The notes under the pieces are model-generated. The model ran no database searches. It was given only the letters and a program-made list of their open reading frames with translations, and was not told the DNA's origin. DNA of 64,000 nt, taken from Candidatus Yonathbacteria bacterium (GTDB lineage Bacteria > Patescibacteriota > Minisyncoccia > Phycocordibacterales > JACNGX01). A program made the position numbers and the translations under genes. This document shows, in pieces, positions 582 through 58,603 of the stretch (its first letter is position 1; every line of letters begins with the position of its first letter). The stretch lies in the NCBI GenBank assembly GCA_013334825.1, contig JAAXWR010000002.1, positions 34,025 through 98,024 of the forward strand, in the 5' to 3' direction.

Positions 582-927
582 AAAACGTGAAGTAAGCACA
601 CAGATGCGTTTTGAGGTAGGAATATGAATGTAGGGACACTCGAATCAAGAATTAAGGGTTACGAAGTACGAACTTATACGAACATACGAAACTGGACGGG
701 ATGAAGGGTTACGAAGTATGAACTTGTACGCTTGTCCTGCACTCTACGTGGACTGCTGTGCATCCTACGTGGTGCACAGTGCACAGTTCAGGGAACATAC
801 GAATACTACTCAACATGATAGATTCTTCTCAATAGTCCGTGTTCGTATGTTCGTACTCGTTCGTACTTCGTAACCGATCTTGCAACTTAACACTCGCAAC
901 TCACCATTCATTTGGTATACTATATTC

Positions 928-3693
928 ATGGAACAAGGCACGATTGAACGGCAACATTTTACTAATCCTGAAGAAGAGATTGCGTTTTTGCGTAGGCAAC
1001 TTGCTGAACGTGAGTCGTCACTAGAACGCCCTGCGTCTCCTGAAGAACGTGAACAATTTGCTGAAGAAACAGTACGCGCGTATGAAGCGCTTCCTGTTGA
1101 GGAAGTCATTCTCCCCGAACAACGCATGACCCCTGAAGAGACAGAGGGAATTGTGCTTGAGTTATCTCCTGAAAACCATGATAAAACAATGGAAGATTTA
1201 CTCGGTTTTATTATCGAAAAAGGACTCAAAAATACCTTGGGTATTGTAGAGCGCATGAACAACCCGCATATCGCTGATGATTTTCATCGCTTTCTCGTAC
1301 AATATATTCGTCATACACCCGAGTTACCTGATGTTCGTCGTGATGTACGTCTCAAAAAAGCACTTCATATGTGTTTGTATGAAGTAACACTTCCTGATAT
1401 CGGTACACGTGAAGAAGGAAATAAAGCATTTAAAGAAATTATTTCATCTATGGAACAGTTTTATGCGGGCATGATGTCAATTTCCGAAGATAAAGAACCA
1501 ATCCCAGGGAAAGATTTTTTCTCCATAGAAATAGCACAATCCGATGCCCGTTCCGATGTCGTGTTTTATGTTTCCGTACCGACAGAAAAAGCGCTCATGT
1601 TTGAAAAGCACATGGAAGCCGTTTTTCCAAAAGCACGTATTGAAGAAAACAAAGACGACTATAATATTTTTAGTGAAACAGGTGCAGCGGCGGGTGCATG
1701 GGCGCGTCCATCGCGAAGTTCTGTCTTTCCTATTCGTACGTATGACGCATTTGACCATGACCCGCTTGATATCATATTAAATAGTTTTTCTAAGCTCAAA
1801 AAAGATGGTGAAGGTGCCGCAATACAGCTTGTTGTCTCGCCCGCGGGGAATACCTTTGTGAAGCGATACGGGAAGGCACTTGATGATATTCGTAAAGGTG
1901 TGTCAGTAAAACACGCGACTGATGTTCCCCGTGATTTAGGTGGCGATGTTGCCAAAGGTCTCAAGGAAGTGGTGCTCGGTAAAGGACTTCCCAAGAAGCA
2001 TGAAGATGGTATGAAGACGCCTGAAACGGATCAGTCAGCAGTTGAACAGATTTCCAAAAAAGTAGAAAGCACTATTTTTGATACTAATATACGTCTTGTC
2101 GCATCTGCGGAAACAGTGGCGCGCTCAGAGGCAATTCTCGCTGATTTGCAGTCGTCTTTTCATCAGTTTACAAACGCGCAAGGAAACGGTTTTGTGTTTG
2201 TGCGTGAACAAGGACGTGCGCTCAATCGTCTTATCAATGAATACACCTATCGTACATTTGACACGAGTGAGAGCTTTCCGCTCAATCTGCGTGAAATGAC
2301 AAGTATTATACACATGCCTGCGCATCAAGAGAATGCACCGCTGTTGAAACGTGCAAAAGCAGGGAGCGCGCCTGCTCCCATGGAACTTGGAAATGAGGGG
2401 ATTGTGCTCGGAGTCAATCGGTATCGCGGAGATACTAAAGAAATTCGTATGTCACCCGAAGACCGTTTGCGCCATTTCTATGTCATTGGACAGACGGGTA
2501 CTGGTAAAACGACCCTGCTCAAAAACATGATTGTGCAGGATATTAAGAATGGTGATGGTGTGTGTATGATTGATCCGCATGGCTCGGATATTCAAGATAT
2601 TCTTGGACAGATTCCTCCTGAACGCGCCAAAGATGTGATTTATTTTGACCCTGCATATACTGACCGACCGATGGGACTTAATATGCTTGAATATGACACA
2701 CGTTTTCCTGAGCAAAAGACATTTGTCGTGAATGAACTGTTGGCTATTTTCAAAAAATTGTATGGTGCGGTGCCAGAAAGTATGGGTCCTGCATTTGAAC
2801 AGTATTTTCGTAATGCCACGATGCTTGTGATTGAAGATCCTGCAACGGGTAACACACTGCTTGATGTGTCGCGCGTACTTGCTGATGCGAATTTCCGTAA
2901 ACTAAAATTGTCGCGGTGTAACAACCCTATTATTGTGCAATTCTGGAGAGAGATTGCGGAGAAGGCAGGAGGGGAAGCATCTCTTGCGAATATTGTGCCG
3001 TATATCACCAACAAGTTTGACGTCTTTCTCGCGAATGAAATTATGCGTCCGATTGTCGCGCAAGAACATTCTGCGTTTAATTTTCGTGAAGTGATGGATG
3101 GGCGTAAAATTCTTCTCGTCAATCTTTCAAAGGGACGACTTGGAGATGTGAATGCGAACCTCATCGGTCTTATCATTGTGGGCAAAATCTTGATGGCTGC
3201 ACTTTCGCGTGTGGATACTGTAGGACGCGAAACACCCCCGCCGTTTTATTTGTATATTGATGAATTTCAAAATATTACCACCGATTCTATTTCCACGATT
3301 TTGTCTGAGGCACGTAAATACAAATTGTCGCTTACGATTGCACATCAATTTATTGCACAATTAGAAGACAATATTCGTGATGCGGTGTTTGGTAACGTGG
3401 GGTCGCTCGGAGTGTTTCGTGTAGGAACAGAAGATGCGGAGTTTTTGGAAAAACAATTCGAACCTGTCTTTTCGGCGACGGATATTATCAAAATCGACAA
3501 CAGAAATGCATATATGAAAATGCTTGCCGATGGTCGTCCTGTGAAGCCATTTAACATGGAAACACTTGCTCCCGCGGTACCGCGTGTGGATTTGGCAGAC
3601 AAAATTAAAGAGTTGTCATATTTGCGATATGGGCGTGATCGTGCCGAGGTGACAGAAGAGATCATGCGGAAGTATAGAAAAAGCGAAGCATGA
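928..3693 (+). CDS. Large P-loop ATPase of the TraD/TraG/VirD4 (type IV coupling protein, FtsK/HerA superfamily) type, with an uncharacterised roughly 500-aa N-terminal region
   Basis: Walker A 'VIGQTGTGKTT', Walker B-like 'FYLYIDEFQN', and the overall C-terminal architecture resemble T4SS coupling and DNA-translocating ATPases. I take the start at ATG 928 (MEQGTIERQHF), downstream of the repeat block. Confidence 0.65.
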   Translation: MEQGTIERQHFTNPEEEIAFLRRQLAERESSLERPASPEEREQFAEETVRAYEALPVEEVILPEQRMTPEETEGIVLELSPENHDKTMEDLLGFIIEKGLKNTLGIVERMNNPHIADDFHRFLVQYIRHTPELPDVRRDVRLKKALHMCLYEVTLPDIGTREEGNKAFKEIISSMEQFYAGMMSISEDKEPIPGKDFFSIEIAQSDARSDVVFYVSVPTEKALMFEKHMEAVFPKARIEENKDDYNIFSETGAAAGAWARPSRSSVFPIRTYDAFDHDPLDIILNSFSKLKKDGEGAAIQLVVSPAGNTFVKRYGKALDDIRKGVSVKHATDVPRDLGGDVAKGLKEVVLGKGLPKKHEDGMKTPETDQSAVEQISKKVESTIFDTNIRLVASAETVARSEAILADLQSSFHQFTNAQGNGFVFVREQGRALNRLINEYTYRTFDTSESFPLNLREMTSIIHMPAHQENAPLLKRAKAGSAPAPMELGNEGIVLGVNRYRGDTKEIRMSPEDRLRHFYVIGQTGTGKTTLLKNMIVQDIKNGDGVCMIDPHGSDIQDILGQIPPERAKDVIYFDPAYTDRPMGLNMLEYDTRFPEQKTFVVNELLAIFKKLYGAVPESMGPAFEQYFRNATMLVIEDPATGNTLLDVSRVLADANFRKLKLSRCNNPIIVQFWREIAEKAGGEASLANIVPYITNKFDVFLANEIMRPIVAQEHSAFNFREVMDGRKILLVNLSKGRLGDVNANLIGLIIVGKILMAALSRVDTVGRETPPPFYLYIDEFQNITTDSISTILSEARKYKLSLTIAHQFIAQLEDNIRDAVFGNVGSLGVFRVGTEDAEFLEKQFEPVFSATDIIKIDNRNAYMKMLADGRPVKPFNMETLAPAVPRVDLADKIKELSYLRYGRDRAEVTEEIMRKYRKSEA

Positions 3694-3933
3694 ATCAAGA
3701 AGCACGAAGCAAGAATAAACGATGAAGGGAGGGAATAGAAGTTGGGAACATGGAGAAAGAATGATTTCTCAGACATCCGCACGACACGGATGCGGTTCTC
3801 AGAACAAGTAGCGTCTATTTTTTAAGAACTACGAACTACGAACTAAGAACTATGTAGGGTGTATGGCAAGCTTCCAACTCATATGCTATGATACCGGCAT
3901 ATTTATCCGTTATTTCACCAGAGTATTTTACAT

Positions 3934-4542
3934 ATGTCCCACCCTAAAGAAGAACGCACACTTGTTATCATAAAACCCGATGGAGTTCAACGATCTTTGA
4001 TCGGCGAGATTATATGTCGATATGAGAGGGCGGGATTAAAGCTGGTTTCCCTTAAGATGGTTATTCCTGATGAGCAAATAGCAACCAATCATTACATGGT
4101 TGGTGGTGAGGAGTGGCTTGAAAATGTAGGAAAGAAGGCGACCGAAGCCTATGCTCGAAAGGGAGAGAAGCCCCCATTTGCAACACATCGTGAGAATGGT
4201 CTTGCTGTCCTCAAGTCTTGCTCAACATATCTCTCAGCTGGCCCCGTCATTCCGATGGTGTGGGAAGGAAATCAGGCAGTTGGTGTTGTGCGTAAGATTA
4301 CTGGTAGCACAGAACCACTTTCTTCTGATGTGGGAACAATTCGCGGTGATTTTACCGTTGATTCATATAAGATTGCAGATATGGCTCAACGCGCTGTGCG
4401 TAATCTCATCCATGCATCTGGTTCTGTAGAAGAAGCGGAAAAAGAAATTGCTATCTGGTTTAAGGAAAACGAAATAGTTTCGTATCGTCATTTGCAAGAA
4501 GCAATTCTTTATGATGTAAATCTTGATGGTATTATTGAGTAA
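3934..4542 (+). CDS. ndk: Nucleoside diphosphate kinase
   Basis: Canonical NDK N-terminus 'ERTLVIIKPDGVQRSLIGEII…' and active-site His context. A 10-bp perfect-stem terminator hairpin follows at 4572-4596. Confidence 0.9.
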   Translation: MSHPKEERTLVIIKPDGVQRSLIGEIICRYERAGLKLVSLKMVIPDEQIATNHYMVGGEEWLENVGKKATEAYARKGEKPPFATHRENGLAVLKSCSTYLSAGPVIPMVWEGNQAVGVVRKITGSTEPLSSDVGTIRGDFTVDSYKIADMAQRAVRNLIHASGSVEEAEKEIAIWFKENEIVSYRHLQEAILYDVNLDGIIE

Positions 4543-5086
4543 AAGAATAGAAAACAATTATAAACAACAACGGGACGGGGCGAAAGCCCCGTCCCGTATT
4601 CGTATGTTCCCTGTAGCACGTGGGGTGCAGGGCAAGCGTACAAGTTCGTACTTCGTAGCCCGTCTCTAGTACAGCGTAGGGTGCAGGGCAGGGCGTAATT
4701 TTTAATTCAGCATTCATAATTTATACACAGTTTCCTTTTTCTCATGTTGTATCGTGTGTTCGTTCTACGAACTAAGAACTACGAACTACGAACTTGTGTT
4801 CGTCCATGTTCCACTACACCAACTTTTCTCATGCTTGTCATGCTTGCGTATCTTTTTTCGAGAATTATACTGATAGGGGGTTGCTACGGGTATTTTCTAG
4901 GACAAATCGTTTTTTCAGGGAGTCCGATGTTACTGCGCGCTTTGGTGCGTATGTTCAGGACACCCACCTGGCAATACGCTAGGGAATGCCCGGTTTATGC
5001 AACCCCTCAAAAGTCGTCCATCGTTCTTTCCAAGAATGCTGGACGTTTTTTGTTTGTTCTTTTCTTTCCTGTGATATACTTGTTGT

Positions 5087-25293: not shown

Positions 25294-25557
25294 AGAGAGA
25301 AGAAGTATGTGGTAGCACATAAAAGAAATAATTTCTTTTGCGCATCTTGTACACCCTCTACAGAAAGTTCTTAGTTCGTAGTTTGTAGTTCTTAGAGCGA
25401 CGGACGACGACTTGTGGGATTTTTGTTTTTAGTTTTTTATCGTTTGTCGCTTATAGTTTTCTTTTCGATATTTCATATTCCTCATCTATTGTTTGTTTTA
25501 TCAACAGAAAAAAGAAGAAGAGTGCGCGTGAACATGTTATGATAGAAGTATTATCAA

Positions 25558-28004: not shown

Positions 28005-28340
28005 ATATGAAAAGTAAATGCGGAACAAACGCGGAAGCTCGCGGAACGGACGCGGAAGAAACAAGAAGTATGAATCACGGAATGAGAATTAAGCTCGCCC
28101 TGCACCCTACGTTGCCTGCTGTGCATCCTACGTGGCTTGCTGTGCATCCTACGTGGTGCACAGTGCATAGTGCTGGGGAATATACGAATGATGAAGAAAA
28201 AAGGTAGACGATGAAATAAGAAAATAGAAATATGAAGACGAAAACTATAAATGGTAAAAAGAAAAAATAAAAATGGTAAACTATGAACTATGAAAAACAT
28301 ACTAAAAATAAAAGCGGACATAGTGTCCGCTTTTTCTGTG
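28005..28340. repeat. Composite intergenic repeat element (copy A). Order: 'gcggaa' words, a multi-hairpin block (CCCTGCACC-CTACGT-…GGTGCA…), 'acgaa' words, a purine-rich R4 block (GATGAAATAAGAAAATAGAAATATGAAGACGAAAACTATAAATGGTAAA), and a bidirectional terminator AAAAGCGGACA-TAGTG-TCCGCTTTT at 28309-28336
   Basis: The same modular order recurs at 41777-42115 and 56207-56530. Partial versions occur at 600-880, 4600-4700 and 31310-31560. Confidence 0.7.
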
Positions 28341-29131: not shown

Positions 29132-30154
29132 ATGCATTATATGAAGATTATTAGTTTCTCCAATGAAGAGTGGGAAAAAGACTTTCTTTCAAAGCATCTT
29201 CCCGCACACACATTCATCTTTGTGGATGGGTTTATGCAAGACCGTACCGATGTCTCTGACCCAGATGCAGAGATTGTTTCTGTGTTTGTGAGTTCACATG
29301 TGGGCGCTACGGAGATGGATCGCTTTCCGTCACTGAAGTGTATCGTGACGCGTTCGACAGGGTTTGACCATATTGACCTTGCCGAAGCTCTGAAGCGCGG
29401 CGTTGTCGTATCCAACGTGCCAACATACGGTGAGAATTCAGTTGCAGAGATGGCGTTCGCGCTTCTCCTTGCGCTCTCGCGTCGTATTTATGATAGTTAC
29501 AAGCAGGTTGTTGAGACGAGTAGTTTTTCACCAAAAGGGCTGACCGGCTTTGATTTGAAAGGCAAGACATTGGGTGTTGTTGGGACAGGACATATTGGTG
29601 TGTATGCGATTAAGATCGGCAAAGGATTTGGTATGGATATTGTCGCGTATGACCCCTTCAAAAATGATGCACTTGCGAATGAACTTGGCTTTCGGTATGT
29701 CGGTTCGTTTGATGAGCTTCTTGGTATGTCTGATGTTATTACACTCCACGTGCCACATAACGAGCATACGCACCACATGATCAATATGGATAATATCGAG
29801 AAGATCAAGAAAGGTGCCGTTCTCATCAACACCGCGCGTGGGCCAGTGGTAGAGACCATCGCAATGGTGAAAGCGCTTGAAGAGGGGATACTTGCGGGAG
29901 CAGGGCTTGATGTGCTTGAAGAAGAAGATTTTCTTCTCGATGAAGATGCACTTCTCCATATGGAACATCCGAATGGTGAGAAACTTAAGAACGTACTCGC
30001 CAATCAATATCTGATTGACCATCCACGTGTCATTGTGACACCACACAATGCGTTTAACACCAAAGAAGCACTCGAACGCATTCTTGCAGTAACTGTTGAA
30101 AACATTGAAGCGTGTGTAAGTGGAGCGCCGAAGAACGTCGTTAAAAGTTCTTAG
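29132..30154 (+). CDS. D-isomer-specific 2-hydroxyacid dehydrogenase (D-lactate/glycerate/hydroxypyruvate reductase-like), NAD-binding
   Basis: 'GKTLGVVGTGHIGVYAIKIGKGFGMDIVAYD' Rossmann motif and catalytic R/E/H context '…INTARGPVV…PHNA…'. A terminator AGCGGGGCGTGGGACC-TTCG-GTCCCACGCCCCGCT follows at 30188-30223. Confidence 0.85.
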   Translation: MHYMKIISFSNEEWEKDFLSKHLPAHTFIFVDGFMQDRTDVSDPDAEIVSVFVSSHVGATEMDRFPSLKCIVTRSTGFDHIDLAEALKRGVVVSNVPTYGENSVAEMAFALLLALSRRIYDSYKQVVETSSFSPKGLTGFDLKGKTLGVVGTGHIGVYAIKIGKGFGMDIVAYDPFKNDALANELGFRYVGSFDELLGMSDVITLHVPHNEHTHHMINMDNIEKIKKGAVLINTARGPVVETIAMVKALEEGILAGAGLDVLEEEDFLLDEDALLHMEHPNGEKLKNVLANQYLIDHPRVIVTPHNAFNTKEALERILAVTVENIEACVSGAPKNVVKSS

Positions 30155-30322
30155 TTCGTAGTCCTTGGTTCGTAGAGACGAAAAGCGGGGCGTGGGACCT
30201 TCGGTCCCACGCCCCGCTTGCGCTTACAGTCTATAACCTATAAGCTATAAGCTATTCACCTACAGCCTAATCTCCTCACATACTAACCTCCTAATCTCCT
30301 ATTCTCCTAACCTCCTATCATT

Positions 30323-31303: not shown

Positions 31304-31563
31304 ATATAGGAAAGAGGTTAGAGGTGATAGGGGCGGACAGGAATGTAGGAGAGAGGTTATAGGTTATAGGGACGAACACTCGAATCAAGCGTGCCCTGCA
31401 CCCTACGTGGTGCAGGGAATTAAGGGTTACGAAGTGCGAACTTGTATGCTTGCCCTACATTTCGCGTGGTGCTAGGAAACACACTTGAAACGGGACGGGA
31501 ATCAAAAGATATGAAATCAGGAATATGCTGTGTATCAAATAAAAAACCGCACGACAGTGCGGT

Positions 31564-39628: not shown

Positions 39629-39820
39629 ACGAAGTTTCAAGTTGTTAGTTTCAAGTTGCTAGATTGGTTACGAAGTACGAACGAGTACGAACATACGAAC
39701 ATAAACTCACCAATATAGTTGTCCATGTTCAGTAGCGTTCGTATGTTCCCTAAACCGCGTAGGGTTCAGGGCAAGCGTATAAGTTCGTACTTCGTAATCT
39801 AATATTATTTACTGTACTAT

Positions 39821-56206: not shown

Positions 56207-56530
56207 ATGTGAAATGAGAAAATAGAAATGAGGAATATGGGATGGGTTACGAAGTACGAACTTGTACGCTTGCCCTGCACCCCACGTGGCGTGCTGTGCA
56301 TCCTACGTGGTGCATAGTGCTAGGGAACATACGAAACGAGACTAGAAGCAAGAATCAAGAAGCACGAATAAAGAAGAAAACGATGAAATATGAAAATAGA
56401 AATATGAAATATGAAGATGAAAACTATAAACGGTAAACGATAAAATGAAAAAGTTAAAAAAAAGAAAGACAGTGTTCAATACAATGTAAAAAAATAATCC
56501 CGCGGCTTCCGCCGCGGGATTATGAGTTAC
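56207..56530. repeat. Composite intergenic repeat element (copy C). Includes a terminator AATCCCGCGGC-TTCC-GCCGCGGGATT at 56496-56525 that serves the minus-strand gene 56527-56700
   Basis: The module order is the same as in copies A and B. The R4 block 'GATGAAATATGAAAATAGAAATATGAAATATGAAGATGAAAACTATAAACGGTAAACGATAAA' is present. Confidence 0.7.
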
Positions 56531-58343: not shown

Positions 58344-58603
58344 CGAAGTGGGGCAGAGCATACGTTTATATAAGTATTTTTTCCGCAATATTCCCCCAGC
58401 ACTATGTACCACGTGGATGCACAGCAGGCCACGTGGTTGCACGGCACACTACGTGAGATGCCGGGCAACTGCGTAGTATTTGTGTAAGTTCCGCGTGTTT
58501 CTGCGTTCATTCCGCATCGCTTCCGCGTCATGCAAAACTTGCGTTTCTCCTCATAATATAGTACCCTATGGTGCATCGTCCCAAGTGGGCGAAACACTAC
58601 ATT

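Follow-up and report, generated by a model that had tools for sequence, protein, structure and literature searches.

The Locus and Its Intergenic Repeats

The window analysed here (the whole 64-kb stretch of DNA) opens with a fragment of map, the last gene of a SecY-Adk-Map block, and a single long open reading frame, referred to as X or ATPase X, separates map from ndk, as the initial annotation had stated. In the orthologous loci L001–L003, X is preceded by S8-L6-L18-S5-L15-SecY-Adk-Map. The genes and repeats are as follows:

3–581, + strand: 3' part of map, methionine aminopeptidase (Pfam Peptidase_M24, E 2e-37)
657–875: palindromic intergenic repeat element, arms 657–697 and 835–875 (41 nt, 85% complementary)
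928–3693 (stop codon included), + strand: ATPase X, soluble, most likely 921 aa, with a very likely DUF8128 domain and a T4CP-type ATPase
3822–3851: heptamer run (CTACGAA/GAACTAC)n, intergenic, downstream of X
3934–4542, + strand: ndk, nucleoside diphosphate kinase (Pfam NDK, E 1e-37), the conserved downstream neighbour
4596–4665: further inverted copy of the palindromic module, 3' of ndk
25366–25394, 28099–28167, ~30146–30162, 31417–31452, 39653–39799, 56244–56320 and 58399–58434: other intergenic repeat sites

The mechanical reading frame of X opens at TTG 880, from which the previously given length of 937 aa derives. ATG 928 is the most likely start, since the homologues begin there with ME..., and it yields a protein of 921 aa.

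The repeat words reported for this region proved genuine and far more frequent than by chance: when up to three mismatches are tolerated, GGTTACGAAGTACGAACTT has 8 occurrences (0.04 expected), and with up to two mismatches CTACGAACTACGAAC has 16 (0.07 expected). The element at 657–875 contains an inner hairpin (CCTGCAC/CTACGTGG, at ~736–783), recurs almost unchanged in L001 and L003, and has no family match in Rfam; as single-stranded RNA the region 645–885 folds with −96.8 kcal/mol (z = −7.6). The two flanks of X do not carry an identical module, as had been assumed: the GGTTACGAAGTACGAAC...CCTGCAC...CTACGTGG palindrome is found upstream only, and downstream there is only the heptamer run. 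The heptamer copy number varies among close strains, with three units in the window, two in L002 and one in L001, while the remaining spacer is ~98% identical. An inverted pair (703–750 and 4617–4664, 48 nt, 88% complementary) encloses X together with ndk, and because a palindromic copy lies past ndk, the repeats do not delimit X. The same words are dispersed over at least seven other intergenic regions of the window, so that they neither bracket X specifically nor mark an insertion.

Domain Architecture of ATPase X

Three regions can be distinguished in the protein:

928–1332, + strand: residues 1–135, helical N-terminal module (AF2 helices 14–128)
1345–2367, + strand: residues ~140–480, alpha/beta domain, very likely DUF8128, with a fold like the VirB4 N-terminal domain
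2395–3690, + strand: residues ~490–921, RecA-like P-loop ATPase and TraG-D_C region
2488–2511, + strand: Walker A, GQTGTGKT
3247–3264, + strand: Walker B, YLYIDE

The helical module carries a conserved motif (KG...NPHI.D.FH.FLV) and, among the sampled relatives, is seen in Patescibacteria only. In lineages with a short X (~800 aa) it is a separate gene of ~140 aa, and a profile HMM built from c9, a cluster of upstream ORFs from 11 loci, matches X residues 13–124 (E 3e-9). Plasmid and phage homologues align to X only from residue ~135–197 onward. The N-terminal 500 aa had been described as lacking a recognisable domain, but close homologues bear Pfam PF26449 (DUF8128), which is precomputed on nearly all 120 listed homologues. 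Since these include the 95% identical P0001, membership of the window protein is very likely. Two independent methods match the N-terminal domain of X to that of TrwK/VirB4. There is no hydrophobic 19-mer in residues 1–500, the sole one (741–763) lying within the ATPase fold; by contrast, p48 of pLS20 has two N-terminal transmembrane helices. The ATPase domain contains an all-helical insertion (helices ~596–701), and the catalytic motifs of the family are unchanged across 94 sequences. Pfam and NCBIfam profile searches recognised no DNA-binding domain in X.

Family Membership of the ATPase

The initial annotation assigned the C-terminal half to the coupling-protein (T4CP) branch and suggested an HMM search of this part, which bears the assignment out by a narrow margin. 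Three T4CP models of Pfam exceed their gathering scores, namely T4SS-DNA_transf (26.7 against 20.1 bits), TrwB_AAD_bind (25.9 against 20.5 bits) and TraG-D_C (26.2 against 22 bits), as does DUF87 (29 against 23.2 bits). The RecA-like domain, the intact Walker A and B motifs and the all-alpha insertion are likewise those of a T4CP. Sequence comparison with solved structures gives TrwB (E 1e-4) and DotL (E 0.03) as the nearest and only notable PDB matches, and the VirD4-like CD1115 family aligns over the whole domain (X residues 510–836). The NCBIfam T4CP models stay far under their cut-offs (SXT_TraD 56.6 against 366 bits, CD1115 32.4 against 250 bits), and the N-terminal transmembrane segment expected of a T4CP is absent from X (for the TraJ/TraI statement on this criterion, see PMC12857230). 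Structural comparison places the C-terminal domain at about equal distances from the VirB4 C-terminal domain, DptH-C, TrwB and HerA.

The two-domain build with a VirB4-type N-terminal domain agrees with VirB4. Membership in that family is rejected at the sequence level, where TIGR00929 VirB4_CagE demands 643.1 bits and X attains 22.7, with the P-loop alone aligned. Neither CagE_TrbE_VirB nor AAA_10 of Pfam matches X, BLASTP detects no similarity to the TcpF-type VirB4 of the same Bacillus plasmid that bears an X homologue, and in the loci examined there is neither an adjacent virB3 nor a T4SS cluster around X. HerA was rejected on the HAS-barrel, the NurA partner and the sequence, and FtsK-SpoIIIE on the membrane domain, the gamma domain and the sequence. 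A full-length profile match is given by phrog_5156 (E 3.2e-87, X 144–917 against profile 24–809 of 824). X is a soluble, cytoplasmic motor ATPase from the T4CP lineage, a kind of motor that supplies conjugation machines with DNA or proteins. In its subtype a VirB4-like domain (very likely Pfam DUF8128) takes the N-terminal place of transmembrane helices.

Conservation and Inheritance

X belongs to a family with more than 1,634 homologous sequence clusters in Patescibacteria (56–95% identity), and at least 600 stretches of the GTDB one-genome-per-species collection match it. The order SecY-Adk-Map-X-NDK occurs in about 25–28 of 90 related loci, with ndk directly 3' of X in 28 (median distance 118 bp), and SecY-Adk-Map-X-NDK-DUF2238-betaCASP is kept in relatives from 95% down to ~48% protein identity. 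The GC content of X (0.437) and its GC3 (0.369) are like those of the neighbouring genes. Judged from the sequence distances, X (mean 0.435) is more conserved than Map+NDK (mean 0.480) and diverges in step with them (Mantel r 0.52, 0 of 2,000 permutations). In these ultra-small bacteria X is a chromosomal gene of long standing and strong conservation, and in Paceibacteria-type Patescibacteria it is mostly vertically inherited and strongly constrained.

A proposed synteny comparison, asking whether map and ndk adjoin elsewhere, found them directly side by side in ten NDK-anchored metagenome loci (gap 38–413 bp). These empty sites were seen in distant relatives only (NDK 51–58% identical) and indicate that in some lineages X is dispensable at this site or has been relocated. 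The initial annotation would have given way to a lineage core gene if the C-terminal domain scored as HerA/FtsK and relatives carried the gene in a conserved core context; the core context was found, and the HerA/FtsK score was not.

An Orphan Among Coupling Proteins

The absence of T4SS components nearby, noted at the outset, was upheld. The 20 largest ORFs of the window, which were inspected, include FtsH, SecA, PPDK, LigA, PilB, PilM, GatA/B and similar proteins and no T4SS genes, and neither the window nor 1.9 Mb of loci from patescibacterial relatives gave a tblastn hit to relaxase, VirB4 or VirB3 from plasmids. The linkage to relaxase and/or mating-pair-formation genes that is typical of T4CPs is therefore not seen in either. 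According to a published census, 2,918 Patescibacteria genomes hold 5,713 VirD4-type homologues, about two per genome, of which just 148 are near virB4, and exaptation was raised by its authors (PMC12102498). X probably belongs to the T4CP homologues remote from virB4 that were counted there (Quinonero-Coronel et al. 2025). As far as it was consulted, the census describes neither the domains nor the synteny nor the structure of such proteins. For Ca. Southlakia epibionticum it reports essential T4SS genes and a non-essential T4CP homologue (PMC12102498), and the primary paper states that the T4SS of this organism has no recognisable coupling protein (PMC10633639). In the window and the related loci examined, family ancestry is the only link between X and the patescibacterial T4SS.

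The plasmid homologues are situated differently. BLASTP hits among plasmid proteins reach 2e-31 (over X 197–906) and 3e-25 (over X 155–808), and the corresponding genes lie directly 5' of 'replication-relaxation family' genes within TcpE/PrgI-VirB4-NlpC/P60 clusters, one of them adjoining a TrbC/VirB2 gene. On the B. subtilis plasmids NZ_OX419568 and NZ_CP154917 the homologue is annotated as 'DUF87 domain-containing protein', and on the Embleya plasmid NZ_CP108778 as 'type IV secretory system conjugative DNA transfer family protein'. Full-length relatives of the subtype fill the coupling-protein slot of monoderm conjugative plasmids, directly 5' of a relaxase-family gene. In Paceibacteria-type Patescibacteria, X has lost the relaxase and T4SS neighbours and gained the N-terminal helical module, and in this lineage it lies at the end of the ribosomal-protein/SecY-Adk-Map cluster.

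Possible Function and Alternative Explanations

The favoured explanation, to which we assign a probability of roughly 45%, is that X is a domesticated orphan coupling-type ATPase of the T4CP lineage with a VirB4-like N-terminus, which feeds substrate to a translocon encoded elsewhere. X would form a ring like TrwB and VirB4 and would hydrolyse ATP through its intact Walker A/B site. In VirB4 the N-terminal domain connects the protomers with one another and also binds VirB3 and VirB8; in X, protein contacts of the corresponding domain, and not helices of its own, may dock the ATPase at the membrane. It could then deliver or pump protein or DNA, in either case with no relaxase attached, into the translocon, which would most likely be the patescibacterial T4SS-like machine, and in other lineages may be an adjacent ~900-aa membrane protein together with a DUF5663 protein.

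Rather unlikely, but to be weighed seriously, is that X is a stand-alone DNA translocase independent of any T4SS, a cytoplasmic motor serving DNA uptake or nucleotide scavenging alongside the type IV pilus and competence apparatus, or chromosome or repair transactions. The stand-alone DNA import or export motor suggested in the initial annotation falls under this reading. The lack of T4SS and relaxase genes nearby and the housekeeping-like conservation and placement of X would agree with this, as would the presence of RmuC and UDG among its neighbours in some loci, of PilM and PilB in the window, and of recombination and replication genes near the homologue of phage TP-84. However, no DNA-binding domain was recognised, X is beside com/pil genes in no locus examined, its plasmid relatives sit in T4SS clusters, and VirB4-type N-terminal domains serve membrane-machine contacts rather than DNA handling in known systems. 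Somewhat less probable still is that an ancestor shared by a large patescibacterial clade captured a conjugation coupling ATPase, which then became a T4SS-free housekeeping motor. Such a motor would share its expression with the block of translation and secretion genes (ribosomal proteins, SecY, Adk and Map). Its Patescibacteria-specific helical module and its VirB4-like domain would adapt it to a new membrane partner, and its task might be the import of nucleic acid from the host or the export of an effector or surface protein; the family would perform a related T4SS-independent task in Bacillus phages. It is also doubtful that X is the motor of a separate, undescribed system for export or surface assembly, in which the ~900-aa membrane protein and a 103-aa DUF5663 protein take part; both adjoin X in other lineages and would here be encoded elsewhere in the genome. 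The order X-big-DUF5663-FKBP in L034, L053, L070, L087 and L089 and the order big-DUF5663-c9-X in L071 and L080 speak for it, as do the central hydrophobic segments and the long Pro/Ala/Ser-rich C-terminal part of the big protein. On the other hand, the adjacency is limited to ~8 of 90 loci, the 64-kb window contains no homologue of either partner, and the big proteins are scarcely alignable with each other (22–28% identity over parts of their length). Pfam revealed no domain in the big proteins, so that no function can be guessed for them.

Two further explanations carry far less weight. The top PADLOC match of X is mad8 (E 6e-16, residues 515–819), and weak HerA matches could likewise suggest a role in defence against phages or plasmids, as an ATPase of the HerA, DptH or MADS mad8 type. 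This is very improbable, as the matches reflect no more than the ATPase fold common to these proteins, X has no defence partners as neighbours, and its single-copy conservation in a housekeeping context and slow evolution are unlike defence islands; neither co-localisation with nuclease, Sir2 or methylase genes nor a patchy, island-like distribution was seen. The recent accessory insertion proposed in the initial annotation, a mobile cargo bounded by the flanking repeats, is largely refuted. The repeats on either side are non-random, the inverted pair spans X plus ndk, and some relatives have empty map-ndk sites, but the repeats also occur in many further intergenic regions and the flanking modules differ. 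There is no integrase, transposase or target-site duplication, base composition is ordinary, position and orientation of X are constant in relatives down to ~48% identity, and X diverges together with the flanking genes.

Patescibacteria rely on host cells, and few systems have been shown to be essential for this lifestyle; their T4SS-like and pilus machines belong to these few. For the thousands of VirD4-type genes remote from virB4, whose role the census left open (PMC12102498), the locus of X provides an anatomy (helical module, VirB4-like docking domain and T4CP motor) and a constant position in the genome. It also suggests a likely origin, namely the coupling proteins that are paired with replication-relaxation-family genes in monoderm conjugative elements, and it names the ~900-aa membrane protein and DUF5663 as candidate partners. 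With these, phylogenetic profiling, multimer modelling and genetics can be brought to bear on the role of such genes. The locus further points to a subtype of coupling protein that lacks transmembrane helices, is common to plasmids, phages and Patescibacteria, and is detected only marginally by current T4CP models.

Comparison with Known Systems

X shares with TrwB (R388), VirD4, TraD and DotL the RecA-like nucleotide-binding domain, the all-helical insertion and the TraG-D_C region. In contrast to these canonical T4CPs it has no N-terminal transmembrane anchor, but a VirB4-like domain of ~350 residues and the helical module in its place, no relaxase or mating-pair-formation linkage, and NCBIfam T4CP scores far under cut-off. 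With VirB4 (TrwK of R388 and VirB4 of Thermoanaerobacter pseudethanolicus) it has in common a soluble N-terminal domain followed by a C-terminal ATPase, whereas sequence-level membership and neighbouring virB3, virB6 and virB8 are missing. X also resembles the T4CP-slot proteins of monoderm conjugative plasmids, which likewise consist of a DUF8128-like N-terminal domain and a T4CP-type ATPase without transmembrane helices, and which align to X 197–906 in a single HSP (E 2e-31) at about 24–28% identity. They lack the helical module of residues 1–135, and their genes lie in a VirB3/VirB4/hydrolase cluster with a replication-relaxation gene, none of which is near X in the window. The phage members of phrog_5156 (SPO1-like phages, the B. 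cereus phages JL, Shanette and CP-51, and the Geobacillus phages TP-84, gp48, and D6E) are 20–23% identical to X across both domains (tblastn, BLASTP); they lack the N-terminal helical module and are encoded by early/middle-region genes of unknown function. The existence of these phage homologues shows that the family can function without any T4SS.

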